Virus record (IMG/VR): IMGVR_UViG_2718218128_000001
Strand: one strand, 5' to 3'
Length of the DNA stretch: 20,762 nucleotides
Source of the DNA: a virus
Lineage: Duplodnaviria; Heunggongvirae; Uroviricota; Caudoviricetes
Positions 1 to 19,360 of this stretch are shown here, one piece after another; position 1 is the stretch's first letter; every line of letters begins with the position of its first letter. The notes beneath the pieces were generated by a model that saw only the letters and a program-made list of their open reading frames with translations, did not search any database and had not been told where the DNA came from. The translations under genes and the position numbers were made by a program.

Positions 1-1170
1 TCACTCCTCATTTTCTTCTGAGCTGTACTCCACATCGGAGAGTTTAACCTCAAGCTCTAAGCCCGTCGTGAAACCGTTATTATTGAGGTTGTGGGTCACC
101 TTGCTGATTAACCATGCCTGCTCGTCTATGACGCGCTTAAAGCCTGACACGCGTACAGGCGTCTCAGGAAATAAATCCGCTCGCCCTAGCGCCAGTGTGA
201 TTGAAAACTCCGCAACGCCTCGCTGCAGTTTATCCCACTTAGCCTGAGCGGCGCGCATCGCCTGTGCCTTTGAGGCATAGACCGTCGTCAGCGCCAGCAC
301 GTTATCGGCTTCACCGGCCATGTACTCACCCTCACGTGCTTCCTGTTCTTTTTTGACCTTTGTCTTTTTGCTGACCGGCTTTGCTTTTGGGTGTTCCAGT
401 GCGCGCAGGTGCTTCTCTTTTGGCTTGCGTTTCAGCGTTACTTTCTGCTTTTGTGGCTTCGGGTCTTTGGTGTGCAACCATTTAGCAGTGACGCCGGTAT
501 AAGCCCCACGGTCGGCAATGGCAAACTGATGACGGTCACCATCACTGCGGGTCAGCGTCATTTGCGGGACGGGTTTGCCGCTGGCCGTCATCGCACTACC
601 GGCTTTCAGAAACAACAGTTTCCCTGCCTTCACCGATACCGTTGCCCCGTTGCGGTCAGCCAGTCGACTCAAAAATACCGCGTCGGATTCCTGCGACTGG
701 TCGATATGCGGTACCGGGATTTTTTTCAGCGATTCCGCAATGCTGGCCGTCAGTTTGTTGCGCTTTGCGATGGTACTGACCAGTTCGCCGATGGTGGTGT
801 CGTGCCATGACTCTTCACGCCTGGAATTTAGCGTGCCGCGAAAGTCCGCGCTGCGCGCCCGGATGGTCAGGGTATCAGGAGCCCCCCGGTGCTCAATCTC
901 ATCGACCGTAAAATCCCCCTTATTCAGCAGCGCCGAACCCTGCCAGCCAAGCCACAACGTCAGCACTGCCCCGCGCAGGGGTAACTCGACTTTCCCATCG
1001 GTGTCATCGAGCTCAATGTCGAGCTGGTCAGCTTCAAAGCCCCTATTGTCCGTCATGGTGAGAGAAATCAGCCGGTCGCTGAAGTTACTGGTAATGTCCT
1101 GACTGTTCAGCGTCAGCATAAAAGCCGGTGCAAGGCTGGCACCGGCGTCAATTGCCATCCCCGTTATCAT
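1..1170 (-). CDS. D: Tail protein D (late gene D homolog)
   Basis: 389-aa ORF with ATG start, length close to P2 gpD (about 387 aa). It sits last in the E-T-U-D tail block, and its start overlaps the U stop (ATGA). Confidence 0.88.
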   Translation of the reverse strand: MITGMAIDAGASLAPAFMLTLNSQDITSNFSDRLISLTMTDNRGFEADQLDIELDDTDGKVELPLRGAVLTLWLGWQGSALLNKGDFTVDEIEHRGAPDTLTIRARSADFRGTLNSRREESWHDTTIGELVSTIAKRNKLTASIAESLKKIPVPHIDQSQESDAVFLSRLADRNGATVSVKAGKLLFLKAGSAMTASGKPVPQMTLTRSDGDRHQFAIADRGAYTGVTAKWLHTKDPKPQKQKVTLKRKPKEKHLRALEHPKAKPVSKKTKVKKEQEAREGEYMAGEADNVLALTTVYASKAQAMRAAQAKWDKLQRGVAEFSITLALGRADLFPETPVRVSGFKRVIDEQAWLISKVTHNLNNNGFTTGLELEVKLSDVEYSSEENEE

Positions 1171-1652
1171 GCAGTGAAACCTCCGGGCATACCCTGCAGT
1201 TTATCTGTCAAATTACCGGCAGAGCCGAGAAGCTCACTGGCCTGTTTATTCAGGTCACCAAACATCTCTGTCAGCGATTCATCAACCCGTTTTAGCGAAA
1301 GCGTGAAATCAATCTTTCTGGCCGCACCATCACTGAAAAACTCGGTGCGTGTAGTCGATACTTTATCGACGATATACATCCCGAGGATATTTCCGGTTCC
1401 CTCTATCAACGGCCACGCTCTGCCTTCATTGGCCATCACCTCTACAGCCTTAAGTGAGATCCAACCGCCAGTGATAGCGGGGTATAGCGTACCAGCAAGC
1501 TGTATAGAGGTTTCCCCCTCGCCAAGAAACTGATAGGCAGGTGGTTTACCCACCCGGTCATTGGACACCCAGCGATAATCTTTCGAATGCTGCATCGACT
1601 GGTAAGGCAGGGTGCGAAGTTCAAACACAAACATTCCGAGAGCAAGCATCAT
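1167..1652 (-). CDS. U: Tail protein U
   Basis: 161-aa ORF between the tape measure gene and D, as in P2 (gpU about 159 aa). ATG start, translationally coupled to D. Confidence 0.85.
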   Translation of the reverse strand: MMLALGMFVFELRTLPYQSMQHSKDYRWVSNDRVGKPPAYQFLGEGETSIQLAGTLYPAITGGWISLKAVEVMANEGRAWPLIEGTGNILGMYIVDKVSTTRTEFFSDGAARKIDFTLSLKRVDESLTEMFGDLNKQASELLGSAGNLTDKLQGMPGGFTA

Positions 1653-1665
1653 CGTTTAATCCCCC

Positions 1666-4110
1666 TCAATAGTCGTGGGTCATGTTGGCACGCTGGCGGG
1701 CGCGTTTATCGCGCTCAATCTGTTCGAGCGTGTCGCGTAGTTGTCTGTCAAGCTGATGCCCCGGCGCAACACCTCCCGGCAGATTGATGTTGTATTCGCT
1801 TTTGCTCTGGTCAATGTAAGAGCGCCCCGCCGGTGCGGTAACTGGCTGATAAGCCTGATAGCCGCCATATGTGCTGGTTGCCGGGATGTAGGAATTACCC
1901 TGTGTGGCGGCATTGGTTTTGGCGGCGGTCTGGTCGAGGCTGTCCGACTCTTTGTTGATGATGCCGAGCTTTTCGAGAAGCCAGTCGACACCGCTGCGCA
2001 GCTTGTTAAAAACATTGAGCGGAGCCATCAAGGCAGAGGCCAGTGCCTGACCAAATATGACGCCGACATTTTTGCAGCTATCAAGCGTTTCCTGCGTGGC
2101 CTTAACCGGTGCTATCAGGTCTTTAAACCACTGCCAGACGCCGCGCAGTTTCTCGCCGAGACCATCAAAAATGGGAGCCAGTGGAGCGAACATTTCCCCG
2201 ACTGGGGCAAAGGCACTCATGATGCCCTCAATCACTCCCGAGAAAAATGCGCTGATGGGCTCCCAATATTTACGGATGAGTAGCGCCCCCGCCACAATCG
2301 CCGCACCGACGGCCACTATCGGCCAGGTAATCGCACCGAGCGCTGTCGCAATGGCACTACCGACGACAGTAAAGACCGTACCCAGCACGCCAGCAGCGGC
2401 GATAATGGCATTAATCCCCATGACAACCGGCCACGCAACGAGACCAATGCCGCCGATGATACCAATCAGCGCCAGCGCACCACCGGCGATGATGCCGATA
2501 GTTTCCGCTAACTCCTTGTTGTCTTTGATCCAGTCATCAAGCTTTAGCACATACCGTGTTGCTGTCTGAGTTAGCTGACGCAATGAGCTATCTTGCTGGT
2601 CGTAGAGGTCGGTACCGACGGCCTCATAAGCGGATTGAAACTCTTTGAAGTCGCCACCTAAGTTATCCTGCATGACCTTAACCAATTCCTCGGTTTTACC
2701 GTCAGAATCCTTAATTATCTTGGTCAGTTCATCCAGTTTTCCACTGGCCGCTGCGGCCATTAACACACTTGCAGCGGAACTGGCTTCCTCGCCGAATATC
2801 GTTTTCATATACTCGGCTTTTTGACCTGTACCGAGGTTGTTGCGCTTAAAGCTGGCTTGTATTTCTTTCAGGATGGTAAAGATTGGCCGTGTATTGCCTT
2901 TTTTATCCATCGTCTTAACGCCAAGCTCTTTAATGGCATCATAGGCTTTGCCAGTTGGAGCCTGCAGTCGACTTAAAACAGCTCGGCTACCGGTTCCTGC
3001 CATCGAACCTATGATTTTTGCATCGTGTAACGCACCCAGCATCGCGGCGGTTTCTTCTAGGCTGACACCGGCATCTTTGGCAACTGGACCAACATATGTA
3101 AGTGAGTCGTTTAATCCCTCAAATGATGCCTGTGTTTTATTTATCGCCATCGATATGACATCTGCTATATGCGATGCCTTGTCATCTGCGAGCCCGAATG
3201 CCGATTTGGTGCCAATAAGCAAAGCGGCGTTTTCCTCCATAGTTTTTTTATTTGCCAGCGACATATTCAGAATGGCCGGTGTTTGCGCCACTATGCCGTC
3301 TTTATCTGCGCCAGATTTGGCTACGATAATCTGCGCGGCGGCGGCATCATCTGCTGAGGCCGCTGAGTTATCGCCGAGCTGACGCGCCTGTTTGCGTAGA
3401 GCCTGCATTTCTGGAGACTGCTTATCGACCCCAAGCACGGCCTGCAGCTCGGAGTTTTTTTGCGCAAAGTCATAACCGGGCATCAGCAATTTAACCCCGG
3501 CCATCGTTCCCGCTGTCGCAATACCGACCCCGGCAGCACCTGCAGCGGCCATGTTACCGGCAAGCTCCTTACCCGATTTATATCGCTCTTTCACTCGGTT
3601 TAGGTGCGCCTGCTGTGCGCTGACCTTCTCCAATGCTTCACGCTGCCGGTTGAGCTGCGCCGTCGTCTCGCTGATGCGTGTTTTAAGCCCCCGCTCATCG
3701 TTTGCCAGATTGCGGGTATTGATACCGGCGGCACCCAGCTCGCGTTGTTGGCGTTTAACTGACTCGGTGAGGCTGTTGTATTTAACCTGCAGCCCCTCGG
3801 CGGCACGTTTTGCGGATTCGAGCACCTGTGCCTGCGCTCGCGTCGGGCGCTCAGTATTTTTGAATTGCGTTGCAAGCGCTTCAGCCTCGCGCTTTGCCTT
3901 CTCCAGCGACTGGCCGGTTACGGCCAGTTGAGCGCTGGTTTTGCGAAAGCCGTCGATTTTCGCGGCCTGCCCGTTCAGGTCACGCAGCCCTTTTTGTGTG
4001 TCGCGAATATCGCCCGACAGGGTTTTACTCGCGGTCTGGATGGATTTAAGCGGTCGGGTCGCCTGGTCGACCGCTTTCAGCAAAACCTCAAGTCTCAGGT
4101 TATTACTCAT
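1666..4110 (-). CDS. T: Tail tape measure protein
   Basis: 814-aa ORF (P2 gpT about 815 aa) with coiled-coil-like Q/A/K/E-rich N-terminal half and a Gly/Ala/Ile-rich hydrophobic segment. Its start is overlapped by the E' stop (aATGAGTAA). Confidence 0.9.
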   Translation of the reverse strand: MSNNLRLEVLLKAVDQATRPLKSIQTASKTLSGDIRDTQKGLRDLNGQAAKIDGFRKTSAQLAVTGQSLEKAKREAEALATQFKNTERPTRAQAQVLESAKRAAEGLQVKYNSLTESVKRQQRELGAAGINTRNLANDERGLKTRISETTAQLNRQREALEKVSAQQAHLNRVKERYKSGKELAGNMAAAGAAGVGIATAGTMAGVKLLMPGYDFAQKNSELQAVLGVDKQSPEMQALRKQARQLGDNSAASADDAAAAQIIVAKSGADKDGIVAQTPAILNMSLANKKTMEENAALLIGTKSAFGLADDKASHIADVISMAINKTQASFEGLNDSLTYVGPVAKDAGVSLEETAAMLGALHDAKIIGSMAGTGSRAVLSRLQAPTGKAYDAIKELGVKTMDKKGNTRPIFTILKEIQASFKRNNLGTGQKAEYMKTIFGEEASSAASVLMAAAASGKLDELTKIIKDSDGKTEELVKVMQDNLGGDFKEFQSAYEAVGTDLYDQQDSSLRQLTQTATRYVLKLDDWIKDNKELAETIGIIAGGALALIGIIGGIGLVAWPVVMGINAIIAAAGVLGTVFTVVGSAIATALGAITWPIVAVGAAIVAGALLIRKYWEPISAFFSGVIEGIMSAFAPVGEMFAPLAPIFDGLGEKLRGVWQWFKDLIAPVKATQETLDSCKNVGVIFGQALASALMAPLNVFNKLRSGVDWLLEKLGIINKESDSLDQTAAKTNAATQGNSYIPATSTYGGYQAYQPVTAPAGRSYIDQSKSEYNINLPGGVAPGHQLDRQLRDTLEQIERDKRARQRANMTHDY

Positions 4111-4590
4111 TGTGGTGTCCGCTACGCTGCAGCGCCTTTTCGCGCCATGTGATGAGCTCGGTCAGGCTCAGGGAATAGAGCTCTGATAGCGGCCAGTGGA
4201 ATATCACCGCGATATCCGCCATCAGGTCATCGGTCGACAGGTCGGGCGGGAAATCTACTCCGCCGAAGCCGGTGACAAAAAACCAATCACCTTAGCGGCC
4301 AGCGACAGCATATCGGGCAGGTTCATTGCGGTAAGCTCCTGCGCCGTAAGCGCGGGGTAGGTCATGCGTGGCAATACCTTAATCAGCGCATCGACTTCGG
4401 ACTGCGCCACCGCTGCCAGACTGACACCGCGCAGGGTACCGGCGTTCGGCTCAATCAGTGTGACTTTATCAATCGTCTGACCGGCGCGCTTAATCGGCTT
4501 GTCGAGGGTCACGACGTTCGGGTTTACGGTGTCAGTTTCATTGCCAGCCATATCAACAAATTCAGCGGTTTTACGTGGTGCTTTTGCCAT
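4103..4590 (-). CDS. E: E+E' tail assembly chaperone, programmed -1 frameshift product
   Basis: After a -1 slip at ggT-TTT-TTG, the reading frame continues as VTGFGGVDFPPDLSTDDLMADIAVIFHWPLSELYSLSLTELITWREKALQRSGHHNE and stops at TAA (4103..4105), overlapping the T start. This is the conserved E/E' arrangement of P2-like phages. Confidence 0.72.
4255..4590 (-). CDS. E: Tail assembly chaperone E (zero-frame product)
   Basis: Small ORF immediately upstream of T, ending just after a T-TTT-TTG slippery heptamer. Contains a TLDKPIKRAG...LIEPNAG segment typical of the gpE family as I recall it. The true start may be M1 (4590) or M14 (4551). Confidence 0.78.
   Translation of the reverse strand: MAKAPRKTAEFVDMAGNETDTVNPNVVTLDKPIKRAGQTIDKVTLIEPNAGTLRGVSLAAVAQSEVDALIKVLPRMTYPALTAQELTAMNLPDMLSLAAKVIGFLSPASAE
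4276..4282 (-). other. Slippery heptamer T TTT TTG for the E/E' -1 frameshift
   Basis: Plus-strand CAAAAAA at 4276..4282 is TTTTTTG on the minus strand, in frame as ggT TTT TTG within E. This is the same heptamer used by P2 E/E' as I recall it. Confidence 0.7.
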
Positions 4591-5135
4591 GATGTTTTTC
4601 TCTGCTCTGAATGGGGATTAATAACAGGCCAGCAGTGCTGACCGGTTAGGGAATTGTCCTGCAGACGCGAGACCGACCAGCGCATATCCCGCCACAGGTC
4701 ATCAATGGTGGTTTCGACGCTGTCGGCTTTTTTGTCACCCTTACCCGTGGCCTCAACCCCGCGATAACGCTCATACAGGGTGGCGGTCGCCATCGCCGTC
4801 ACGGCGCTGAGGTAGTGGAAAACGCGCACATTCTCGCCGTCGATTTCCTCGGCGTCAGGCACGTCGGCCAGTGTCTTAAACCCTGCGGCAATCTGGCGCA
4901 GCCGGTAGTCGTAAAGCTCCGCATTGGTTTCCGCCATGCCGGTCTTGATGGCGTTGCGCAGGCGCGCATCGGAAACCGTCTGCTCAAGGCGCATCAGTTC
5001 GCGCACCCGCTTCGGATCCACATCAGGGAAAAAGAACGTGTTTTTAATCACTGCGTCGCCCGTCTCCGGTGCGGGAATCACCACGCCCGGTACGTCCTGC
5101 GGTTCGTCGGGCTGATTCAGTATTACTGTCGTCAT
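4524..5135 (-). CDS. L: Head completion/stabilisation protein L with an aberrant C-terminal extension
   Basis: ORF directly downstream of terminase small subunit M, as in P2. The first ~165 aa look protein-like. The last ~40 aa (NSLTGQHCWPVINPHSEQRKTSWQKHHV...) are translated across the start region of E in another frame and look like read-through. Confidence 0.65.
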   Translation of the reverse strand: MTTVILNQPDEPQDVPGVVIPAPETGDAVIKNTFFFPDVDPKRVRELMRLEQTVSDARLRNAIKTGMAETNAELYDYRLRQIAAGFKTLADVPDAEEIDGENVRVFHYLSAVTAMATATLYERYRGVEATGKGDKKADSVETTIDDLWRDMRWSVSRLQDNSLTGQHCWPVINPHSEQRKTSWQKHHVKPLNLLIWLAMKLTP

Positions 5136-5228
5136 GACAACCTCATTAGGTTGGGCGGTGGACGCCGGTCGCCGTCAGGGTCAAAACCTGCTTTGACCGG
5201 CGTGCCGCCCGGCTCGGGGAGCGTTCAG

Positions 5229-5978
5229 TTAACCGGCGGTTTTTACCGCCTTTGGTGGACGCCCGCGCTTTGCCGCCGGTTTGTTGGCAGGTTTGCGCGT
5301 GCGCGGTTTAGTCGTTTTACGGGGCGCGGCCTCTGGCTTTGGCTTCAATGCCCGTTCCAGTCGCTCAATCTCCTTGCGCACACCGGCATTGCGGTCGAGC
5401 TGCATCGCGCGCTGAAACTGCGCCAGCGCCTCTGCATTCATACCGGCATCACGCAGGGTCAGGCCTGTCACCTTATGCAGACGGGCGCGCACCATATCGG
5501 GAACGTCAGCGCCGTCGGTCAGGTCGATAGTGGTCTGCAGCCAGGAAAGGTCGACAGACTCACCGGCATCGCGCAGGCGCTGTGCAGCAAGCGCCACTTC
5601 CTCAACCAGCATGTAAGGTGTTGTGCGGTGGTGGTCAGAGGTGAGGCCGTATTTCAGCGCGTACGGGGCAATTTCCAGCGCGCCAGCGATATCACCGGCA
5701 TCGAGACGCCACAGCATGACGGTCATGACAATGTCATCCTGCGCACCACGGCCATCAGCCAGCACACCGGCGACCCACGGCGCATAGAACGGCAGCAGCT
5801 CGCGCTTTTTCTCGGCTTTACGTTCGTTTGAACGGATGTTTTTTAACGTGCGGCGGTCATCGGCCAGCTTAACCAGCATCTGCTCATAGGCGGTTGCATG
5901 GCGCAGCGGGGCTTGCTCCCGCTGCGCGGCTTGAGAGGCCGAGACCCGCATCATGTGACGCTGTGCGGGGCTCGTCAT
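5229..5978 (-). CDS. M: Terminase small (endonuclease) subunit
   Basis: 249-aa ORF between capsid gene N and L (P2 gpM about 247 aa), with a basic K/R/P-rich C-terminal tail. ATG start. Confidence 0.82.
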   Translation of the reverse strand: MTSPAQRHMMRVSASQAAQREQAPLRHATAYEQMLVKLADDRRTLKNIRSNERKAEKKRELLPFYAPWVAGVLADGRGAQDDIVMTVMLWRLDAGDIAGALEIAPYALKYGLTSDHHRTTPYMLVEEVALAAQRLRDAGESVDLSWLQTTIDLTDGADVPDMVRARLHKVTGLTLRDAGMNAEALAQFQRAMQLDRNAGVRKEIERLERALKPKPEAAPRKTTKPRTRKPANKPAAKRGRPPKAVKTAG

Positions 5979-5981
5979 GGT

Positions 5982-7049
5982 TTAGGCTCCGCTTTCCGGT
6001 GCTGCAGGTGCGGTGAAATCGCCCAGGGTGATGTTTTCCAGCAGGCACCCGGCGGCATACGCCTCGACCACATAGTCGATATTCATCGACTCGTAGTTTT
6101 CAACGCGGTCTTTTTTCGGGTTTTCATCAATGCTGCGGCGGTGGCTCTCATCCATGAAATAGATAGAGAGGTTTTCCAGCGTGGTCACTAACACGGCATT
6201 CGCCGGGAAGTACGGCACACGCACAGCAGGCAGGTTGCCGATTCGCTTCTGGCTGATGATGATATCTGCCGCAAGCGCCTCGCTGTTTTCCTGCGGCTTG
6301 TTCACCAGCGGGAAATATTTGTCGGCTAGCAGCTTACGGCCAACGATGGCAACGAGTTTCGGGTCATCCTGATAAACCTCGTCAATCAGGTTGTTGGTGG
6401 CGTCCATCACCAGCGCGTCGAGGTTCTCATAGTCGCCGTTTCGACCTACACGAATCACTGCTGAAACGACCTTACCGTCAGCGTCGGTGATGTTGCTCAT
6501 CACGCGCGTCGGGGCTTCATTGCGGTATTTCTGCAGCCAGCCGACGGCCACATCCTGCAGCATCGGATTTTTGGTGCGGTCAGAGGTGGCGGCGCGGGTG
6601 GTACCGTTAAAACCGGCCATGATGAAATCCAGTGCCTGACGTTTGACAATGGCGTCGCGGATGCGGCGCTGGAAGTCCTGAAAACGCGCCCACAGGTCGA
6701 GGGTTTTATATTTCAGATGGAAGTCAAAATTAATTTGGTCGCACTCGTACTTGTTGGACTCAAGCGCGGTGAAGTCGGCGGTCTTACGCTCATCATCGCC
6801 CGAGGTGTCGGTCGTGCTGGCGATAGTACCGGTCACACCGACGCCGATTTTCTCACCCTTCATTTCTGCGACCGGCAGAATATTAATCGTCTGCAGAAAC
6901 GCGGATGACTCCTGCACTTTGTTCATCAGTGTTTGCGTGACGGACGGCTCGACGGTGAATTTTTTACTGACGTCATCAGTGCTGATGCCGTTCAGCTCAG
7001 CGACGCGGGTCAGATAGGCATTGAACTTAAAACGGGTATCCGGGCGCAT
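5982..7049 (-). CDS. N: Major capsid protein
   Basis: 355-aa ORF (P2 gpN about 357 aa) between the scaffold and terminase small subunit genes. ATG start. Confidence 0.9.
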   Translation of the reverse strand: MRPDTRFKFNAYLTRVAELNGISTDDVSKKFTVEPSVTQTLMNKVQESSAFLQTINILPVAEMKGEKIGVGVTGTIASTTDTSGDDERKTADFTALESNKYECDQINFDFHLKYKTLDLWARFQDFQRRIRDAIVKRQALDFIMAGFNGTTRAATSDRTKNPMLQDVAVGWLQKYRNEAPTRVMSNITDADGKVVSAVIRVGRNGDYENLDALVMDATNNLIDEVYQDDPKLVAIVGRKLLADKYFPLVNKPQENSEALAADIIISQKRIGNLPAVRVPYFPANAVLVTTLENLSIYFMDESHRRSIDENPKKDRVENYESMNIDYVVEAYAAGCLLENITLGDFTAPAAPESGA

Positions 7050-7125
7050 AGTATTTCCTGTTTGAATTTATCGGTTAGTCACTGCATCGGGCGGGGATGC
7101 CGCCCGGTTTCTGGTCTGCGGTTTA

Positions 7126-7980
7126 TCAGCAGTCGGTCAGCAGCTCATCGCCACCACCGCCGCTGGCTTTCGTGCGTCGCGGCTGGCTGAAACTTTCGGT
7201 TTTATCGAGGGTGGTTTTCAGGTCGGAAAATGCCTGGCTGGTTTCTTCAACCTTGCCGGTCAGTTCCTGTTTGAAAGTGGCAAACGCGGTTTCCATAGCG
7301 GAAAGGCGCTCGTCCTGTTTTGTCAGGTTGGTTTGCACATGTTCGCTGACGGTGGTCACCGCTTCATGCACATCATTCAGGCGCGCATCGTCGCTGACCT
7401 GCTTACGGCTGAAAATGGCTTTCACCTTATCGGCCAGGCTGTTGAGCACCGTGTCGGGAACGTCTTCAAACTCCAGCTCGGCCAGAGTGGCAGCGGAAAA
7501 GACGTTTTCAGGGTTGGCCTTAAAGCGTTGCAGCGGGTTGTGCTTCGCGTTGCGGCAGAATTCGAGGTATTCAGTGCCGAGGCTCGCCGGGTCATCGGTG
7601 ACAGCAAGGCCGACGAGGTAGCATTTGCCGGTATTGGCAAAATTCGGCTGAATTTCCATTGAGGTGTAGACCTTCTGCAATTTTTTATTCATCGCAATCA
7701 GGTCGTCGGTTGGGGTGATTCTGGCGAACAGCGCCCATTTGCCGTTAAGCGCAGAATCGTCGTCAATTATTTCAGCTTTCAGTTCAACCACATCGCCTAA
7801 GCGTTTGAAGTCGCCATCAGGAAAGAGACCGCGAATATGCTCAAGGTTAATGCGGCAACCGTAGACGCGAGGGTCAAACGATTCGGCCATTTCCTGAATA
7901 TCGTTGCCGCTGATAATGCGGCCGTCGCAGGTGTCACCCTCGACGCCGATGCGAAAGAATTTTGAGACTTTTTTTGCCAT
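7126..7980 (-). CDS. O: Capsid scaffolding protein
   Basis: 284-aa ORF (P2 gpO is 284 aa), divergent from the terminase gene P as in P2. ATG start. Confidence 0.86.
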   Translation of the reverse strand: MAKKVSKFFRIGVEGDTCDGRIISGNDIQEMAESFDPRVYGCRINLEHIRGLFPDGDFKRLGDVVELKAEIIDDDSALNGKWALFARITPTDDLIAMNKKLQKVYTSMEIQPNFANTGKCYLVGLAVTDDPASLGTEYLEFCRNAKHNPLQRFKANPENVFSAATLAELEFEDVPDTVLNSLADKVKAIFSRKQVSDDARLNDVHEAVTTVSEHVQTNLTKQDERLSAMETAFATFKQELTGKVEETSQAFSDLKTTLDKTESFSQPRRTKASGGGGDELLTDC

Positions 7981-8145
7981 TGTCAGGAGTCCTGAGGTTA
8001 AGGTTACTGGTCACCGCCAGTTTCCAGACTCAGGACACGCCAGACCACCAATGACGACTGGACAACCGCCCACACAACAGCACCTTAGCGAATCACTGAC
8101 GGCCATTAAGTAGCCTTGCCCTGAATCCACTACGGCGAGGCATCA

Positions 8146-9915
8146 ATGACCATTTCCACAGATACAACCTTGTTGCATGACCCGCGACGGCAGGCATCGC
8201 TGCTTTACTGGCAGGGTTTTTCCGTGCCACAGATTGCCGAAATGCTGCAGGTCAAGCGCCCGACCGTGCAGAGCTGGAAGCAGCGCGACGGCTGGGACGG
8301 CATCGCGCCGATTTCCCGCGTTGAAAGCAGCCTTGAGGCTAGGCTGATTCAGCTCATCGCCAAGCCGCAAAAGACAGGGGGTGATTTCAAAGAGATTGAC
8401 CTGCTCGGACGGCAGATTGAACGGTTGGCGCGAGTCAACCGCTACAGCCAGACCGGCAACGAAGCCGACCTTAACCCCAACGTCGCCAACCGCAACAAAG
8501 GGGAGCGCAAAAAGCCGAAAAAGAATTTTTTCAGCGACGAGTCTATCGATAAACTAGAGGAATTATTTTTCGACCAGTCTTTCGAGTACCAGTTGCAGTG
8601 GTACCGCGCAGGACTGGAGCACCGTATTCGTGACATTCTCAAATCCCGCCAGATTGGCGCGACATTCTATTTCTCCCGCGAGGCACTGCTGCGCGCACTC
8701 AAAACCGGCCATAACCAGATATTTTTATCAGCCAGTAAAACGCAGGCTTACGTGTTCCGCGAATACATCATCCAGTTTGCGCGACTGGTCGACGTTGACC
8801 TGACTGGCGACCCGATTGTCATCGGTAACAACGGCGCAAAACTGATTTTTCTCGGTACCAATTCCAACACCGCGCAGAGCCATAACGGCGATCTGTATGT
8901 CGATGAAATATTCTGGATCCCGAATTTTCAGAAACTGCGCAAAGTCGCCTCGGGCATGGCCTCGCAAAAGCACCTGCGCTCGACCTATTTTTCGACACCT
9001 TCCACGCTGGCGCACGGCGCTTACCCCTTCTGGTCTGGCGAGCTGTTCAACAAGGGGCGCAGCCGGATTGCCGACCGCATCGAAATCGACATCAGTCACA
9101 GCGCGCTCGCCGGTGGCCAGCTCTGCGACGATGGCCAGTGGCGGCAGATTGTCACCATTGAGGACGCCCTTGCGGGTGGCTGCACCCTGTTCGACCTCGA
9201 CCAGCTCAAACGCGAAAACAGTGATGAGGACTTTAAGAACCTGTTTATGTGCGAGTTTGTCGACGATAAAGCGTCGGTATTCCCGTTCGAGGAGCTGCAG
9301 CGCTGCATGGTCGATGTGATGGAGGAATGGGAGGACTTTGCCCCGTTCGCCGACCATCCGTTCGGCTCTCGTCCTGTCTGGATTGGCTACGACCCGTCAC
9401 ACACCGGCGACAGTGCCGGGTGCGTCGTGCTCGCGCCGCCGGTGGTCTCTGGTGGCAAGTTCCGCATGCTGGAGCGCCACCAGTGGAAGGGCATGGATTT
9501 TGCAGCACAGGCAGAGGGCATCCGCAAGCTGACCGAGAAATACAACGTTGAATACATCGGCATTGACGCAACCGGCCTCGGTCTCGGCGTGTTCCAGCTG
9601 GTGCGCTCATTTTACCCGGCGGCACGCGGCATCCGTTACACACCTGAAATGAAAACCGCAATGGTACTCAAGGCGAAAGACACCATTCGCCGTGGCTGTC
9701 TGGAGTACGACGCCGGAGCAACCGACGTCACGCAGTCGTTTATGTCCATCCGCAAAACCATGACTAGCAGCGGGCGCAGCGCCACCTATGAGGCCAGCCG
9801 CACCGAGGAAGCCAGCCACGCCGATATCGCATGGGCGACCATGCACGCCCTGTTAAACGAACCGCTTTCTGCCGGTAGCGGCATGCAGCCTAAATCTATT
9901 CTGGAGTTCAACTAA
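8146..9915 (+). CDS. P: Terminase large (ATPase) subunit
   Basis: 589-aa ORF (P2 gpP about 590 aa), divergent from O and immediately followed by the portal gene (2-nt spacing). Confidence 0.9.
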   Translation: MTISTDTTLLHDPRRQASLLYWQGFSVPQIAEMLQVKRPTVQSWKQRDGWDGIAPISRVESSLEARLIQLIAKPQKTGGDFKEIDLLGRQIERLARVNRYSQTGNEADLNPNVANRNKGERKKPKKNFFSDESIDKLEELFFDQSFEYQLQWYRAGLEHRIRDILKSRQIGATFYFSREALLRALKTGHNQIFLSASKTQAYVFREYIIQFARLVDVDLTGDPIVIGNNGAKLIFLGTNSNTAQSHNGDLYVDEIFWIPNFQKLRKVASGMASQKHLRSTYFSTPSTLAHGAYPFWSGELFNKGRSRIADRIEIDISHSALAGGQLCDDGQWRQIVTIEDALAGGCTLFDLDQLKRENSDEDFKNLFMCEFVDDKASVFPFEELQRCMVDVMEEWEDFAPFADHPFGSRPVWIGYDPSHTGDSAGCVVLAPPVVSGGKFRMLERHQWKGMDFAAQAEGIRKLTEKYNVEYIGIDATGLGLGVFQLVRSFYPAARGIRYTPEMKTAMVLKAKDTIRRGCLEYDAGATDVTQSFMSIRKTMTSSGRSATYEASRTEEASHADIAWATMHALLNEPLSAGSGMQPKSILEFN

Positions 9916-9916
9916 A

Positions 9917-10963
9917 ATGGGTAAACAAAAATCCCGTAAAGCCAACGCACAAAAGGCCAGCAAACCACAACAACTGACCGCCAGCGCACCGCCAAAAACG
10001 ACAGCGTTCACCTTCGGCGAGCCGGTGCCGGTACTCGATAAGCGCGACATTCTGGATTACGTCGAATGCATCAGTAACGGCAAATGGTACGAGCCGCCGG
10101 TCAGCTTCTCAGGGCTGGCAAAGAGCCTGCGCTCTGCCGTGCATCACAGCTCGCCAATTTATGTTAAGCGTAACGTGCTCGCGAGCACCTACATTCCGCA
10201 CCCGTTGTTATCCCGTCAGGATTTCAGCCGCTTTGCGCTCGATTATCTGGTGTTCGGTAACGCCTTTCTTGAGCAGCGCCACAGCGTCACCGGCCAGTTA
10301 ATCAAACTGCTGGCCTCGCCAGCCAAATACACCCGACGCGGAGTCGACGATTCGATTTTCTGGTTTGTGGAAAACTTCACCCAGCCGCACGAGTTCGCGC
10401 CTGATACCGTGTTTCACCTGCTGGAGCCCGACATTAATCAGGAGATTTACGGTCTGCCGGAATATCTCAGCGCGCTTAATTCCGCTTGGCTGAATGAATC
10501 CGCGACGCTGTTCCGCCGCAAGTATTATCAGAACGGCGCGCACGCAGGCTACATCATGTATGTGACTGACCCGGCGCAAAGTGCGACCGACGTCGAATCG
10601 CTGCGCGAGGCGATGCGTAACTCGAAGGGACTCGGCAACTTTAAGAACCTGTTTTTCTACGCCCCCGGCGGAAAACCGGACGGCATCAAAATCGTGCCAC
10701 TGAGCGAGGTCGCCACAAAGGATGACTTTTTCAACATTAAGAAAGCCAGCGCCGCCGACCTGATGGACGCGCACCGCGTACCGTTCCAGCTCATGGGCGG
10801 CAAGCCCGAGAATATCGGTTCACTCGGTGACGTTGAGAAGGTGGCAAAGGTATTTGTGCGCAATGAGCTGTCGCCGCTACAGGACAGGTTCAGGGAGGTA
10901 AACGACTGGCTCGGCATGGAGGTCATCAGGTTCAAAGAGTACACCCTCGATAATCCGGAATAA
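9917..10963 (+). CDS. Q: Portal protein
   Basis: 348-aa ORF (P2 gpQ about 344 aa) downstream of P. ATG start at 9917. Confidence 0.9.
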   Translation: MGKQKSRKANAQKASKPQQLTASAPPKTTAFTFGEPVPVLDKRDILDYVECISNGKWYEPPVSFSGLAKSLRSAVHHSSPIYVKRNVLASTYIPHPLLSRQDFSRFALDYLVFGNAFLEQRHSVTGQLIKLLASPAKYTRRGVDDSIFWFVENFTQPHEFAPDTVFHLLEPDINQEIYGLPEYLSALNSAWLNESATLFRRKYYQNGAHAGYIMYVTDPAQSATDVESLREAMRNSKGLGNFKNLFFYAPGGKPDGIKIVPLSEVATKDDFFNIKKASAADLMDAHRVPFQLMGGKPENIGSLGDVEKVAKVFVRNELSPLQDRFREVNDWLGMEVIRFKEYTLDNPE

Positions 10964-10973
10964 TCACCACTCT

Positions 10974-10992
10974 AGCCGCCAGCATGGCGGCT
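10974..10992. terminator. GC-rich hairpin between convergent Q and the cargo gene (possible bidirectional terminator)
   Basis: AGCCGCC-agcat-GGCGGCT is a perfect 7-bp stem with a 5-nt loop, lying between the Q stop (10961..10963) and the convergent stop at 10994..10996. There is no U-tract, so this is weak as an intrinsic terminator. Confidence 0.3.
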
Positions 10993-10993
10993 C

Positions 10994-11719
10994 TCAATCG
11001 TGAGTGGATATTTGCGAAACAAACTCTTTAACTCCATCTCGTTCAAGTATTTTACTGTCATGGATATACTTTACGATATCCCACTCGTAGTATGTACAAG
11101 CCATTGCAACTAAAGATATTATTTTTATGTCAGTTAAGTTAACTAATGTTTCATAATAATCTTCCCGTTCAACCCCGCAATTATCTATCAACTTCACAAT
11201 CAAATAAAAGCGACGCACCACTGAAAAAATGCAATCATTAGCATCCACTTCACTTAACCACTTTGTTATTACCTCTTTTTTTACCTTGGCTTTAACTAAA
11301 ATTACAATATTATCTTCAAGATAAGTTACGGCTGCACCACTTGTAAATTCTTCGACCACCCCGTCAGTTTGTCCATCAATATCACCAACTTGAACACAAA
11401 ACCTTTCAAAGTTAGAATCCTGACATTCAACCAAATGGAAAAATCTCACTTCAAATTTTTTATACTCTTCTAAAGATTCTTGCCTTTTTACTTCATCGAT
11501 CAGGCTGGAATTAGCCTCCCTTTGAAGTTTTATTGAATTTATAAGGAGGTAAATTGTAATAAATGAAAGTATAGGGTTGACGACACCACCCAAATAATCA
11601 CCAAACTGCGCCCAAACATCAGTCTTGCTGGATAAATGTCCGTTTACTCCGAAGTTGAAGTAATACAAGGCGCACACAGCTACAATCACGCCAGCCGAAG
11701 ACAGCAACACCTTTCTCAT
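10994..11719 (-). CDS. Hypothetical membrane protein of cargo cassette: two N-terminal TM helices plus ~180-aa soluble domain; candidate effector
   Basis: 241-aa ORF with ATG start overlapping the upstream gene's stop (ATGA). Hydrophobic segments at about residues 5-25 and 44-62. The region is AT-rich, unlike the phage backbone. No family recognised by eye. Confidence 0.6.
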   Translation of the reverse strand: MRKVLLSSAGVIVAVCALYYFNFGVNGHLSSKTDVWAQFGDYLGGVVNPILSFITIYLLINSIKLQREANSSLIDEVKRQESLEEYKKFEVRFFHLVECQDSNFERFCVQVGDIDGQTDGVVEEFTSGAAVTYLEDNIVILVKAKVKKEVITKWLSEVDANDCIFSVVRRFYLIVKLIDNCGVEREDYYETLVNLTDIKIISLVAMACTYYEWDIVKYIHDSKILERDGVKEFVSQISTHD

Positions 11720-12534
11720 ACAGTTTCAACCATACGGATTAGATATTTCACCACATCACCACTTTTTACTACAACTTTGCTAACAGTAAGTTTTAGATAT
11801 GTGTAGTTATCTTGCCTGCCATTATTATTGTGTAAATTTAATGAGACCAATCTTTTTTGAGCGGCGGGTATAGCCTTTAAAGGCATGTAAAAACCAAAGG
11901 CTACTGTATCATCTTCACCTTCGATAACTAACCTACCATTTCCAGTTCTCGCATTAAATCGAGTAATAACTGCGTTAATATTAACTTGACCGGGCTTTAT
12001 TTTTGATTGTGTCAAGTTTGTAGCAGTCATTGTGTCTAACTTTGCTATTCTTTGTTTTCCAGCAGGTTTTTTATAGTTAAGTTCAACATCAAAGTTTTTT
12101 TGAAGATTTATCCTATGCATCCTTACCAAAGGTTGTCTGATACGATCAATAAGTTCATCTTCAATTTCCTCAAGCTCCTCAATAATTCCTGCAGCTTTTG
12201 GAGATAGCTCCTTAGTTTCCAGATATAGAGATTCAGAAATAAAATACCCCATGACTTCCGAGAACACAGAACGGGTCATTTTTTTTAATTCGGCAGCTAA
12301 TTCCGGCTCATTAACAATCAAGTCGAAGTTTTGACCATAAGAACTTTTAAAGCTTTGTTTGAGAACCGCTCGCGCAGGGTTAACATGAGTGCGGCGCTTA
12401 ATAATTTTTTTTCTGAGTATTGCCTCTGCTAGTATGCATGTCACCTCAGCCGTTCCAGAGAGGGTATCAAGGCCATACTCCATATCAACTTCTTGATCAC
12501 CACTTTTGATGACAACGTCATAGCTAACTTTCAT
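11716..12534 (-). CDS. Hypothetical soluble protein of cargo cassette; candidate sensor or enzymatic component
   Basis: The ORF track starts at GTG (12540). The ATG two codons in (12534) is preceded by AAGGA at 7-nt spacing, giving about 272 aa. No TM segments, and no nucleotidyltransferase or nuclease motif recognised by eye. AT-rich. Confidence 0.6.
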   Translation of the reverse strand: MKVSYDVVIKSGDQEVDMEYGLDTLSGTAEVTCILAEAILRKKIIKRRTHVNPARAVLKQSFKSSYGQNFDLIVNEPELAAELKKMTRSVFSEVMGYFISESLYLETKELSPKAAGIIEELEEIEDELIDRIRQPLVRMHRINLQKNFDVELNYKKPAGKQRIAKLDTMTATNLTQSKIKPGQVNINAVITRFNARTGNGRLVIEGEDDTVAFGFYMPLKAIPAAQKRLVSLNLHNNNGRQDNYTYLKLTVSKVVVKSGDVVKYLIRMVETV

Positions 12535-12597
12535 CGGCACATCCTTGATTTAGTAACCTTTGGTTATTATTTTTCATCTTCTACTCATTGACACCGA

Positions 12598-12626
12598 TTT
12601 TTTACACCAAAAATATCAAATTGCAA
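12598..12626 (-). promoter_or_regulatory. Candidate sigma70 promoter for the cargo cassette
   Basis: Minus strand reads TTGCAA, a 16-nt spacer, then TAAAAA, about 60 nt upstream of the cargo start codon, in an AT-rich leader. Found by eye only. Confidence 0.3.
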
Positions 12627-12642
12627 GTGTGTGCTGCGCGCA

Positions 12643-12661
12643 ATGCTTTCCCCGCCACGCC
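12643..12661. other. cos-like site (19-nt cohesive end sequence)
   Basis: Plus-strand ATGCTTTCCCCGCCACGCC is the reverse complement of GGCGTGGCGGGGAAAGCAT. That matches my recollection of the phage 186 cohesive end and differs at 2 positions from P2 (GGCGAGGCGGGGAAAGCAC). It lies in a ~450-bp non-coding GC-rich stretch, in the expected place between Q and A. Confidence 0.6.
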
Positions 12662-12826
12662 TGCCCGCTTTACGGGGCGGTTTTAATGCAGTTGCATGAA
12701 CACTCGGGATCCGCGCCAGCTCTGGCGGCGCACGGTCAGAACGGGCAACCCCTGCGAATGCAAAAGCATGCACCTGTTGCATGCACGGCTAAAAACGGGG
12801 AAATCGCGGAAAAATGGCATAAAAAA

Positions 12827-12845
12827 CCGGCATTCACGGTGCCGG
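12827..12845 (-). terminator. Rho-independent terminator for minus-strand transcription
   Basis: CCGGCA-ttcacgg-TGCCGG hairpin flanked by AAAAAA on the plus side, which is a TTTTTT tract after the stem on the minus strand. It lies downstream of the small minus-strand ORF at 12986..13177. Confidence 0.45.
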
Positions 12846-12985
12846 TTTGGGGCTGGTTTTGTCGCGATTACTGGGCGTGTAATGCGCCAATAACACTATT
12901 GAGGCACATGCTGGCAAAAATCAGCAGAAAAATCGTCGTCCACCGATTTTCATAAACGAGAGATAACATATTGATATAGATCCTT

Positions 12986-13177
12986 TTATTTGTGCATTCT
13001 AATGTGGTTTAACAGGTGTTTGATAACGACCGTAAGCTCATCTTTACTGGCTTGCTCGACCATTTTTTCGGTGTAGCTTTCCACCTCACGAGAACTCAGG
13101 TCGTTATTTGAAGCCATTACGGTCAGCTTTTTTGCCCAATCGGCAAACGGGTCTATCGATGAAAGGGAATTATGCAT
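12986..13177 (-). CDS. Small hypothetical protein (about 63 aa from the internal ATG)
   Basis: ORF with a GAGG Shine-Dalgarno-like sequence upstream of the ATG at 13177 and a terminator-like hairpin downstream. The start overlaps the divergent gene's start on an ATGCAT palindrome. No family recognised. Confidence 0.3.
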   Translation of the reverse strand: MHNSLSSIDPFADWAKKLTVMASNNDLSSREVESYTEKMVEQASKDELTVVIKHLLNHIRMHK

Positions 13178-13607
13178 GTCCAAAAACCTCGAATTATTTA
13201 ACCAGCAGACGGCGGAAATTTTTGCGGTGTTATGGGATAACTTCCCGGTGCCGCAGGTCATCACCTACGAAAAATTTAACGCCGTGCTACCTGATGACTA
13301 CTTTGACCAACTTAACTCACCGGAAATGAAAGCACTGAATCAGTTGCGTAGTGTGGTTGAGGGTACATTCACTTTTCTCAGTGAAAACGGCTACATCCAA
13401 TATGAAACAGACCATCAGACTTATTTTCGGGATGTGCGCCTGACCGAGAAAGCACTCGCCGTGCTCAACAAAAAGCCCGAGGCACTCGGCGGTAGTGAAA
13501 CGATGGGCGATAAGATTATCAGTGCGGTGAAAGACGGGACACCCGGAGTTATTGCAGGTGCGGTGACAAACCTGCTTTCACTCGGTGTCAATCTGGTAAC
13601 CAACTAA
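13176..13607 (+). CDS. Hypothetical protein, 143 aa (accessory gene)
   Basis: ATG start with a good AAGGGA Shine-Dalgarno sequence 7 nt upstream. It is on the opposite strand to the flanking phage operons and has a hydrophobic C-terminal segment (GVIAGAVTNLLSLGVNLV). No family recognised. Confidence 0.5.
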   Translation: MSKNLELFNQQTAEIFAVLWDNFPVPQVITYEKFNAVLPDDYFDQLNSPEMKALNQLRSVVEGTFTFLSENGYIQYETDHQTYFRDVRLTEKALAVLNKKPEALGGSETMGDKIISAVKDGTPGVIAGAVTNLLSLGVNLVTN

Positions 13608-13673
13608 CGCCTCGCGTGGCTCGTTGTTCAACCCGTCAGCACTGAAAGCAAGTTTCAGCACCGGCGGCGTTTG

Positions 13674-13907
13674 TTAATGCAGCCAGCTATCGTCCTCCCA
13701 TACCTGCTGCATGATTTCCATTACTCGTTTTTTATCTTCGTCCAGTTTCAAACCGCTTAGTTCAACGCCATTAGCGGAGCCCTTGCGAATTCGGATAGCA
13801 GTCTTTGGGTAAATAGGTTGAAGATTGCGGTACAGTTCAGCCTCAAGTGCATCCAATGTTGCCTGACTAATTTTTTGCTCTTTATCCAACGTGATATTGA
13901 TTCTCAT
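13674..13907 (-). CDS. DinI-family protein (Tum-like antirepressor candidate)
   Basis: 77 aa, alignable by eye to E. coli DinI: MRI.VT. at the N-terminus, DAL..EL.R..Q in the middle, EDK.R..EI.Q..WE near the C-terminus. Downstream of a LexA box. Confidence 0.8.
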   Translation of the reverse strand: MRINITLDKEQKISQATLDALEAELYRNLQPIYPKTAIRIRKGSANGVELSGLKLDEDKKRVMEIMQQVWEDDSWLH

Positions 13908-13910
13908 AAT

Positions 13911-14093
13911 CTAATCAGCCTTATAAAAATTATCATCTTCGGTTTCGTTATTTTCGCTGTTTGCTAGGTCTGCAATGAGAGTGAGCGCGAGCTTTAAGTC
14001 TGATGGCTTGCAGTTTGCAATCAGAGATACCTCGGCAATAAATTGCACACAAGCCCACTTTTGCTGCGTTCGGCTGAAATGTTCGCCAACCAT
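13911..14093 (-). CDS. Small hypothetical protein (60 aa), first gene of the LexA-box operon
   Basis: ATG start preceded by a strong GGGAGGGA Shine-Dalgarno sequence. Its stop lies 3 nt before the DinI-like start, suggesting coupling. The LexA box is about 20 nt upstream. Confidence 0.45.
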   Translation of the reverse strand: MVGEHFSRTQQKWACVQFIAEVSLIANCKPSDLKLALTLIADLANSENNETEDDNFYKAD

Positions 14094-14112
14094 GAAATCC
14101 CTCCCATAGGGT

Positions 14113-14132
14113 TACTGTATGTTTATACAGTA
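14113..14132. promoter_or_regulatory. LexA (SOS) box
   Basis: TACTGTATGTTTATACAGTA has perfect CTGT-N8-ACAG spacing and matches 17 of 20 positions of the consensus TACTGTATATATATACAGTA. It sits between the stop of gene A and the 60-aa/DinI-like operon. Confidence 0.75.
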
Positions 14133-14206
14133 GCACGTATTGGCAAAAGATGGGAAGAAAAAAAACGAATAGAGCGATTGCTGTATGTGCATGATATGGA
14201 TATGAA

Positions 14207-16429: not shown

Positions 16430-16430
16430 T

Positions 16431-16652
16431 TTATACCCCCCGATAGTGTTTGTTTTTTAGCTCTGCGATTTGCTGGCAGGTTACGCAAAAAGCCACGCCC
16501 GGAATCGCAATGCGGCGAGCTTCCGGGATTGGTGCGTCACATTCCTCGCAAAGAAAACGGGAAGGTGCAGCGATACGGGTGCGTGCGTTGCTGATGTGGC
16601 GTTCGCGGTCTTCCTGCTCGCGCAGTTGTGCTAAATCCATTGCGTCGGCCAT
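16431..16652 (-). CDS. TraR/DksA-family C4 zinc finger protein
   Basis: 73 aa with CEEC-x17-CVTC at the C-terminus. It sits immediately upstream of gene A, where P2-like phages carry a small zinc finger ORF. Confidence 0.7.
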   Translation of the reverse strand: MADAMDLAQLREQEDRERHISNARTRIAAPSRFLCEECDAPIPEARRIAIPGVAFCVTCQQIAELKNKHYRGV

Positions 16653-16879
16653 TAGTGCAGCTCCTGTGATTCATTCTCAAAGCGGGTTGCTTCACGGCGC
16701 AGCAGTTCGGCAGCTTCGGTGCCGCTCATTCCCTCTCTGGTAATATGGATAGCCAGCGCCTCAAGGCGGATGGAAACAGCGAGCGCGCGGTCTTTACGCT
16801 CTTCTTTTTTTGCATCGGTCAGCAATACGGCCAGCGCATCGCTATCAGTGTTAAAACTACGGATTTCGGTATTACGCAT
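16652..16879 (-). CDS. Hypothetical early-operon protein (75 aa)
   Basis: ATG start with a strong AGGAGAG Shine-Dalgarno sequence. Stop overlaps the next gene's start. Confidence 0.5.
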   Translation of the reverse strand: MRNTEIRSFNTDSDALAVLLTDAKKEERKDRALAVSIRLEALAIHITREGMSGTEAAELLRREATRFENESQELH

Positions 16880-16946
16880 AATTAACTCTCCTGATTTCGG
16901 GCAATAAGATGCCCGGCGGGTTTACGCCATTAAATTTCTGTTTGGA

Positions 16947-17285
16947 TTAATTCGGCATGGTTAGCCGTTTGGGAAATAAGCTCACTACTGCACGAAAATG
17001 ATTCATCGCTGTAATAAGCGCCTTTTTCTCGTCAGTAGTCAGCTCACTTAATTCGAGTTCATGACGAGCCGCCGGTATTTTTGCCAGAAAGAAAATAGCG
17101 GCCAGCGCCCGATTATTTTCTTCAAATTGTGGGGCACGTTTATCGCGCATATCATCGACAAAACGTTCAACCTCTTTCCAGCTATCGCCCCAATATCTCG
17201 CGCGCAATTCGGCAACATGATTGAGACCGGCCAGACGTTCACCCGCTTTTAGCGGAACAGTCGCGGAAACAGCTTCGATAGCCAT
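16947..17285 (-). CDS. Hypothetical early-operon protein (112 aa)
   Basis: ATG start with a G-rich Shine-Dalgarno-like sequence, co-directional with the early operon. Confidence 0.45.
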   Translation of the reverse strand: MAIEAVSATVPLKAGERLAGLNHVAELRARYWGDSWKEVERFVDDMRDKRAPQFEENNRALAAIFFLAKIPAARHELELSELTTDEKKALITAMNHFRAVVSLFPKRLTMPN

Positions 17286-17449
17286 GATCCCCCCCGCTTT
17301 TGAGTAGAGAGGCCAGCCAGTAAATCAGCCTGCGAGTGGCTCGGGTGCCAGCGCTTGCCGTCCTTACCTGCGATCCAGCCGTGGCCGTAGTGCATGCCGG
17401 GGCTTTGCTTAACGAGCAGAGATGCGAATGACGGTTCACTTTTCAGCAT
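17249..17449 (-). CDS. Hypothetical small protein (about 66 aa from the ATG at 17449)
   Basis: The ORF track starts at GTG (17455). The ATG two codons in has a GAGGTG Shine-Dalgarno sequence. It overlaps the next ORF by 37 nt. Confidence 0.35.
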   Translation of the reverse strand: MLKSEPSFASLLVKQSPGMHYGHGWIAGKDGKRWHPSHSQADLLAGLSTQKRGGSWLSKLFPRLFR

Positions 17450-17456
17450 ACGCACC

Positions 17457-17966
17457 TCAAATCAGACCAAACGATGCGCCAATACCGCTCATGGTATCGA
17501 CCACGCTCGACATAGCTGGATTAGTCTGCAGACGTGCATGCAGAGCCAGAGCCGACAATGACAACATGCGAATGCCGGAGTTAACGCTTTCAATCATGTT
17601 GTGCTTACGGGCAATGGTCAGACGTTCATCAGATACCGCGCCGCTCGCCAGTTCGCCGAGTTCACGCATTGCGCGCATGACATAAGACTGCAATTTGTCT
17701 TTAGCCAACTCATTAACCGGCACGCATGGTAGGCAGTGAATCTGCGCTAAAAAACCATCAATGAGGGTTGAGTCTTCGGTCAGGTCAGTCAGCAGCCACA
17801 ATTCAGACGGCGTGAACTGGTGAGGCTGTTCCGGGTTGAGCTTGTTACGTAACGTTTGAACGTTCATACCTGCACGCTTGGCCAGCTTCGCCATATTGTG
17901 ACGCTGTGCGAAAATGCGGCATGCTTCGTCATAGTGGGGATGTTTGGAAACCTGAAAATCAAACAT
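17457..17966 (-). CDS. cII: Phage regulatory protein CII (186-type)
   Basis: The ORF track starts at TTG (17996). The ATG at 17966 has an AGAGGGAA Shine-Dalgarno sequence and gives 169 aa beginning MFDFQVSKHPHYDEA, matching my recollection of 186 CII in both length and sequence. Confidence 0.75.
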   Translation of the reverse strand: MFDFQVSKHPHYDEACRIFAQRHNMAKLAKRAGMNVQTLRNKLNPEQPHQFTPSELWLLTDLTEDSTLIDGFLAQIHCLPCVPVNELAKDKLQSYVMRAMRELGELASGAVSDERLTIARKHNMIESVNSGIRMLSLSALALHARLQTNPAMSSVVDTMSGIGASFGLI

Positions 17967-17998
17967 GGTTAAATTCCCTCTAACTTGCATAATCAAAT

Positions 17999-19352: not shown

Positions 19353-19360
19353 GGGACATT

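Follow-up and report, generated by a model that had tools for sequence, protein, structure and literature searches.

Why should the head-completion gene L of a phage related to P2 run straight into E, a gene for tail assembly? The question is raised by IMG/VR virus record IMGVR_UViG_2718218128_000001, a stretch of 20,762 nt (here called the window) whose two ends are the stop codons of the tail gene D and of the integrase gene int. An earlier reading of this DNA, made from its letters without database searches (the sequence-only reading), had reported that an L-like open reading frame (ORF) at 4524..5135 directly abuts E with an overlap of 67 nt. It offered two explanations: a deletion-derived defective prophage, or a reduced element that encodes its own capsid and depends on a helper for tails and lysis. 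The arrangement itself is borne out by the ORF coordinates and by matches to the Pfam families Phage_GPL and PF10109. We conclude with high confidence that the first explanation is right and that the element is a recent, lineage-specific, deletion-derived defective prophage.

The single block missing from the window

The closest intact relative is a prophage of Escherichia coli EC1 (NZ_CP058574 1224459-1255179; locus L002, whose coordinates are used for the alignments of the two arms), with which the window is collinear apart from one block. The features at the point where that block is missing are as follows.

4654..4655, no strand: deletion junction, placed by three-way alignment with both EC1 flanks; the BLAST arms meet there in every comparison
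4524..5135, minus strand: L' fusion ORF, 203 aa (Pfam Phage_GPL and PHROG)
4656..5135, minus strand: native part of L (homolog of 186 Q; head-completion protein or head-tail adaptor), residues 1-160 of 169 (PF05926, PHROG 71 and comparison with the native protein)
4524..4655, minus strand: L' read-through, 43 codons plus stop (translation and tblastn)
4627..4650, minus strand: hairpin corresponding to 186 tI (terminator scan and 186 annotation 15906-15932)
4255..4590, minus strand: tail assembly chaperone gene E, intact, 111 aa (Pfam PF10109; 100% identical to EC1)
4103..4240, minus strand: coding region of E', the frameshift extension (EC1 'GpE family phage tail protein', L002 9787-9924, by way of the 99.94% identical left arm)

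The left arm, window 1-4655, aligns with L002 5685-10339 with 3 mismatches (99.94% identity), and the right arm, window 4654-20762, aligns with L002 20001-36111 with 5 mismatches and 2 small gaps (99.96% identity). Altogether the window differs from EC1 by 8 substitutions, 2 small indels and the absence of one 9,663-bp block. Gene order is the same over all 20.8 kb at 99.94-99.96% identity and the structural proteins are identical, whereas EC1 has the extra 9,663 bp between L and E and a normal L of 169 aa. The span from D to int is 30,427 bp in the EC1 prophage and 20,762 bp in the window, which agrees with the earlier statement that the window is shorter than intact members of the family. 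At least 70 further complete E. coli genomes have intact EC1-like equivalents. The D, U, T, E, M, N, O, P, Q, CI and Int proteins are 100% identical to those of EC1, with no extra frameshift or stop, and this lack of further decay in the element indicates that the deletion is recent.

Alignment to phages 186 and P2, which the sequence-only reading had proposed for mapping the breakpoint, also placed it at 4654/4655. The missing block corresponds to 7219-15896 of 186 (8.7 kb), from inside Q to the stop of I, and to about 6482-19373 of P2 (12.9 kb). The distance of about 13 kb that had been quoted between L and E in the P2/186 family is therefore correct for P2 but too long for 186 and for the nearest intact relative (9,663 bp). 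When positions 3900-5400 were compared with phage records by megablast, sequence up to 4655 matched the T/E/tube-end side and sequence from 4654 onwards matched the L/M side; no phage record spans both halves.

According to the EC1 RefSeq annotation, the lost block holds tail and baseplate genes (X, the completion genes R and S, and the baseplate genes V, W, J and I) and lysis genes (holin, endolysin and the spanins LysB and LysC), together with a tail fibre gene, several fibre-assembly cassettes, an invertase pseudogene, the sheath gene FI and the tube gene FII. The P2 record flags these genes as essential for the tail or for lysis. ORFs, Pfam matches and collinearity with EC1 revealed no sheath, tube, baseplate, fibre or lysis gene within the window, which has neither a complete contractile tail module nor a lysis cassette. 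Because both are absent and both map to the missing block, the window is a defective derivative and not a complete phage. The sequence-only reading had named two observations that would speak against it, a product of 4524..5135 other than L and sheath or tube genes elsewhere in the window; the product matches Phage_GPL, and the window has no sheath or tube genes.

The breakpoint sequences point to the way in which the block was lost. The parental flanks read GGGAATT/ACAGCC on the left and GCGGCTT/GTCCTGC on the right, and the window junction reads GGGAATTGTCCTGC. The dinucleotide TT is a 2-bp microhomology common to both parental flanks, and its two copies lie 9,663 bp apart in EC1. The left breakpoint coincides with the stop codon of FII, and the right breakpoint falls within L, 28-30 nt short of its end. 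The 150 bp on each side share words of only 7-8 nt, which lie away from the breakpoints, and at the breakpoints themselves there is no direct or inverted repeat longer than TT; the search for short direct repeats that had been recommended thus returned nothing beyond TT. Since only TT is common and no longer repeat exists, the joining appears to have been illegitimate and microhomology-mediated, and on the evidence of its sequence the deletion arose by illegitimate recombination at this 2-bp microhomology. Homologous or site-specific recombination was rejected because there are no repeats at the breakpoints, and an invertase-mediated event was rejected as the crossover sites of the fibre region do not lie at the breakpoints. 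A scan found no sigma-70 promoter near the junction.

A clean deletion whose length is a multiple of 3 (9,663 = 3 x 3,221) could also be the product of laboratory engineering, for example of a lysis- and tail-deficient packaging strain. We give this origin a negligible probability, since there is no scar, cassette, FRT/lox sequence or added restriction site, every base of the junction comes from the parental flanks, the breakpoint on the L side ignores the gene boundary, and the junction is present in two runs from ENA and SRA.

The element is read as deletion-derived because its breakpoints cut inside L and at the FII stop and only one block sets it apart from EC1, and also because it retains E/E', T, U and D, which are unable to build a tail alone, in an L-E adjacency found in no relative. 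It has a near-identical intact relative with a discrete gap between the two, a breakpoint that disrupts a gene, and a loss of virion and lysis genes, as a deletion derivative should. Nothing that we found contradicts the deletion itself.

Occurrence of the junction and of comparable elements

The junction is real and is present in sequenced bacteria. Two Logan contigs from independent runs, ERR3328749 and SRR19500608, encode exactly this fusion protein of 203 aa; the accessions of the runs belong to two archives, ENA and SRA. The contigs match window 118-6539 and 121-6522 at 100% identity, across the junction. A 2-bp shared sequence cannot make a k-mer assembler fabricate the join, so the deletion must exist in the bacteria that were sequenced. 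A chimeric join or a collapsed contig would account for the lack of the junction in all complete E. coli genomes and in three large contig collections (see below). Such an assembly artefact is very unlikely, however, because the same junction recurs in two other assemblies from different runs, where 6.4 kb of flanking sequence agree at 100% identity, and because the flanks share 2 bp at the breakpoint and no word longer than 7 bp within 150 bp, so that there is no repeat at which an assembler could jump.

The junction is also rare. BLAST searches detected it in none of 5,426 complete E. coli genomes, 71 of which hold both halves at separate places, and the junction 21-mer has no match in GTDB species genomes, IMG/VR or JGI metagenomes. 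The collection that holds the Logan contigs lists the fusion protein for these two contigs only. An identical M protein is found in 966 blocks of the same collection, and all of the longest contigs carrying M are intact (23/23). A survey of L homologs covered 36 species and IMG/VR; EC1-type holin and endolysin queries matched in about half of its loci. The order M-L-X, followed by R, S and V homologs, was found at 114 of the 116 loci and L-E adjacency at none. The possibility that intact relatives naturally share the adjacency, which had been raised as a potential objection, therefore finds no counterpart among the 71 genomes, the 23 contigs or the 116 loci. One of the surveyed loci (L045; Rosenbergiella collisarenosi NZ_JABBFP010000004.1, ~4001-8198) has an L fragment, residues 67-132, followed by S, V and T homologs within 4 kb, which suggests a second P2-like prophage that independently suffered an internal deletion, with other breakpoints.

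These counts bear on the idea that the adjacency is a natural, maintained gene order in a distinct phage lineage, in which E follows L and the tail genes are located elsewhere. The adjacency itself is what such an order would explain. We attach next to no probability to it: 114 of the 116 related loci are M-L-X and none is L-E, the L frame is truncated and fused and has lost its normal stop, and the sheath, tube, baseplate and fibre genes are nowhere in the window.

A more serious competitor is the second explanation of the sequence-only reading, in which the element, once induced, would excise, replicate and package its own 21-kb genome in its own heads, and would borrow tails, lysis and perhaps gpL from a P2-family phage that is co-resident or superinfecting. 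Its head, terminase, portal, cos, replication and integration genes are intact. It also counts in favour of such an element that P2 heads are assembled apart from the tails and are able to join with them. Capsid-forming phage-inducible chromosomal islands (PICIs) encode their own capsid and packaging genes, as the window element does, and the element would resemble these and P4-like satellites in that any movement would require tails and lysis from a helper. If this explanation were true, the window would be a satellite caught at birth, and capsid-forming satellites could arise from helper-type phages in one step.

A weak hint in the same direction comes from the ends of the Logan contigs at window 6522/6539. 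Both lie inside 6514-6545; nowhere else do the window and divergent P2-family phages, P2 among them, agree exactly over 31 nt or more. A second P2-family prophage would give such a break. The two contigs (L004 and L005) in fact break at nearly the same two places, 118/121 and 6539/6522, with the right break within the capsid gene, which suggests a second P2-family prophage in those isolates as one among the possible causes of an assembly break.

Helper dependence as an evolved architecture is nevertheless improbable. P4-like satellites and capsid-forming PICIs have satellite-specific genes and conserved lineages, and the window has neither: all of its genes are collinear with an ordinary intact prophage at >99.9% identity, and it stands one deletion away from a normal phage. 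The partial tail module E, T, U and D is still present, where it would be useless, and the conserved motif of L is damaged. The architecture does not recur at any of the 116 related loci, in any of the 5,426 complete E. coli genomes or in the three contig collections. At only ~69% of the length of its parent, the genome may also be too small to be packaged stably in full-size heads. A deletion-derived defective prophage may still be rescued occasionally by a helper phage.

Gene L, the late operons and the predicted state of the prophage

The L' ORF matches Pfam Phage_GPL with E=2.7e-46 over residues 30-161, the match stopping at profile position 131 of 139, and also matches the PHROG 'head-tail adaptor Ad1'. 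Residues 1-160 of L (ending in SRLQD) are kept and residues 161-169 (KPRCIVGQL) are gone. In their place L' has residues 161-203, which tblastn maps to the EC1 FII-E spacer and the start of E; the first 67 nt of E (4524-4590) are here read in another frame. The sequence-only reading had taken the last ~40 residues of this ORF for read-through, and this proved correct, the exact figure being 43, with nine native residues lost in addition. Of 64 unique full-length L homologs drawn from 36 bacterial species, 80 IMG/VR contigs, 186 and P2, 63 have the motif K[PS]RCIV[GS]Q[IL], P2 gpL among them. Since few parts of L are as well conserved as the lost nonapeptide, head completion is probably impaired in the element. 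A sequence search found no solved structure for L. The fusion explains why annotation pipelines would call a head-completion protein of 203 aa that overlaps E. Another C-terminally truncated head-completion protein was seen in E. coli, a 155-aa variant of L (P0008) that ends in RWSV and is carried by 5 contigs.

The effect of the deletion on late transcription can be considered with reference to the other late genes and sites of the window, which are listed here.

1..1170, minus strand: tail gene D, intact (Pfam PF05954; 100% identical to EC1)
1167..1652, minus strand: tail gene U, intact (Pfam PF06995; 100% identical to EC1)
1666..4110, minus strand: tape measure gene T, intact (Pfam PF10145; 100% identical to EC1)
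5229-5978, minus strand: small terminase M (Pfam; 100% identical to EC1)
5982-7049, minus strand: major capsid protein N (Pfam; 100% identical to EC1)
7126-7980, minus strand: scaffold/protease O (Pfam; 100% identical to EC1)
7981..8145, no strand: putative divergent late promoter region (homology to annotated 186 pV/p12 and P2 pO/pP)
8146-9915, plus strand: large terminase P, intact (Pfam; 100% identical to EC1)
9917-10963, plus strand: portal Q, intact (Pfam; 100% identical to EC1)
12644..12661, minus strand: 186-type cos cohesive end GGCGTGGCGGGGAAAGCA (exact match; NC_001317 cos annotation)

The late genes of P2 form four operons, PQ, ONML...S, VWJIHG and FI FII E E' T U D (PMC3931495). 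In the P2 and 186 records (NC_001895 and NC_001317), the missing interval includes the terminators of the O (head-lysis) operon and of the V operon, the activator site of the V operon and the point where that operon starts, and, for the sheath operon, a promoter (pF in P2, pJ in 186) with its activator site. Two late promoters, those of the baseplate/fibre operon and of the sheath operon, would thus have been lost with the block. The case for this loss is made by homology to the 186 and P2 annotation, because the strict late-promoter consensus, TGT-N12-ACA, is unmatched in the expected spacers. Imperfect sites of the TGT-N12-ACA type do occur in those spacers, one of them at position 79 of the 7981..8145 spacer. 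By homology, the window would retain no late promoters but the putative ones in 7981..8145.

The whole FII-E spacer is still present, and the tI hairpin now lies inside the L' read-through. NC_001317 describes this element of 186 (15906-15932) as a 'partial terminator of pJ transcript', from which the window differs at 1 base. E retains its ribosome-binding region, its slippery site (T6G, at 4276-4282) and the E' extension; the frameshift that produces E+E' is known from P2 (literature and NC_001895). The genes E-E'-T-U-D would be left without a late promoter of their own. They would form part of a fused operon, O-N-M-L'-E/E'-T-U-D, driven only by the late promoter of the head operon and attenuated by tI, and ribosomes translating L' would cross the ribosome-binding site and start codon of E. 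This unplanned fusion of the head operon to E-T-U-D could be used to gauge transcription past the 186 tI.

Several points weigh against this functional side of the interpretation. The strict late-promoter consensus has only intragenic matches, both in the window and in EC1. The tI RNA fold (-20.2 kcal/mol) has a modest z-score of -1.66. The loss of function of L' is deduced from conservation only, and the late activator gene (B/ogr) and the att sites fall outside the window.

As CI, int and apl are intact, immunity and integration/excision should be maintained in the defective prophage, and the intact A gene should allow it to replicate. Heads are probably still made and filled (O, N, M, P, Q and cos are intact). 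Tails would not be built and cells would not be lysed. The element would accordingly persist as a locked-in ('grounded') prophage that is inherited vertically and keeps its cargo genes, and it could be ruled out as the source of plaques, or of lysis after induction.

Defective P2-like elements with conserved cargo have already been described (PMC13586616), as have pools of defective prophages (PMC2669165, PMC6379469). The window element resembles grounded or cryptic prophages in the deletion of morphogenesis and lysis genes and in the retention of immunity and cargo, but is unusually young, with a single event, no pseudogenes elsewhere and a parent that can be exactly reconstructed. It therefore provides an exactly reconstructed case of P2-family prophage lock-in, by a single microhomology-mediated deletion and no other decay. 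The value of the case is mainly practical; biologically it is ordinary and opens no new question.

Phage identity, cargo and the fibre region

By its gene content and similarity, the window is a 186-like E. coli prophage (Peduoviridae, Eganvirus-type). The large ORFs and their Pfam matches identify its late region as that of the P2 family, in reverse orientation. The genes for head formation and packaging, Q P / O N M L, are present in P2 order (Pfam Phage_portal, Terminase_5/6N/6C, Phage_GPO, Phage_cap_P2, Phage_term_smal and Phage_GPL). The pair of L' and E is flanked by D, U and T to one side, and by M, N, O, P and Q to the other. Elsewhere the window carries two cargo ORFs, a DinI/Tum-type gene, the replication gene A, an early region, a CI-type repressor gene, a DUF2511 gene and the integrase gene.

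With phage 186 (NC_001317; Eganvirus) the window shares its architecture, with 94% identity in the head genes and 85% in the tail genes, as well as the cos sequence and the partial terminator tI; it also has a DinI/Tum-type gene and an Apl/CII/Fil region. The cos match extends over the 18 nt of the 186 cohesive end exactly, where 0.01 chance matches are expected. The window differs from 186 in having no equivalent of 7219-15896, a larger CI (286 aa), another integrase region and other cargo by cos. P2 (NC_001895) has the same late gene order, four-operon late scheme and C-terminal motif of gpL, but its nucleotide identity over the late genes is lower (72-77%), and the P2 block corresponding to the deletion includes orf30 and fun(Z), which are not in the 186-like relatives.

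The CI repressor gene (18492-19352, plus strand) encodes 286 aa with two stretches that match the Phage_CI_repr helix-turn-helix and a CI C-terminal domain. The cI gene of 186 (NC_001317 22433-23011, 579 nt) encodes a much shorter protein, and the window CI looks like a variant with a duplicated helix-turn-helix.

Two cargo ORFs of 241 aa and 274 aa are located at 10994-12540 (minus strand), between the portal gene Q and cos. This position falls in the main defence hotspot of P2, which lies between gpA and gpQ (PMC13586616). The cargo ORFs match only PHROGs of unknown function (phrog_8999 and phrog_13337), with no Pfam family and no convincing PADLOC family. The sole PADLOC match is that of a ZorB/MotB-like N-terminal stretch on the 241-aa protein (E=0.002); in EC1 the gene for this protein is split by a frameshift. 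The pair may be an uncharacterised two-gene defence candidate. Small ORFs at 13176-13607 (plus strand) and 12986-13264 (minus strand), by cos on the A side, represent further hotspot cargo; the one of 143 aa has a match to phrog_2266, a group of unknown function, and appears in the EC1 annotation as a hypothetical protein. A 338-aa ORF at 4815-5831 (plus strand), antisense to L and M, has no annotation in EC1 and is most likely spurious, a product of the GC-rich coding region.

The sequence-only reading had further suggested that a Z/fun-type hotspot between the fibre-assembly and sheath genes was lost. The slot itself is indeed deleted, but the nearest relatives have no fun(Z)-type gene there: their slot is occupied by alternative fibre-assembly cassettes and by an invertase, as a gene or a pseudogene, and no loss of a defence gene is shown. 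Among intact prophages that are otherwise identical, the fibre and fibre-assembly region (~16300-19300 in loci L006-L009; 12191-13934 in L002) has at least 4 arrangements. The adjacent invertase is a pseudogene in EC1 and intact in phage vB_EcoM-613R3. This suggests that the fibre region is an invertible host-range segment, which may have become frozen in some lysogens.

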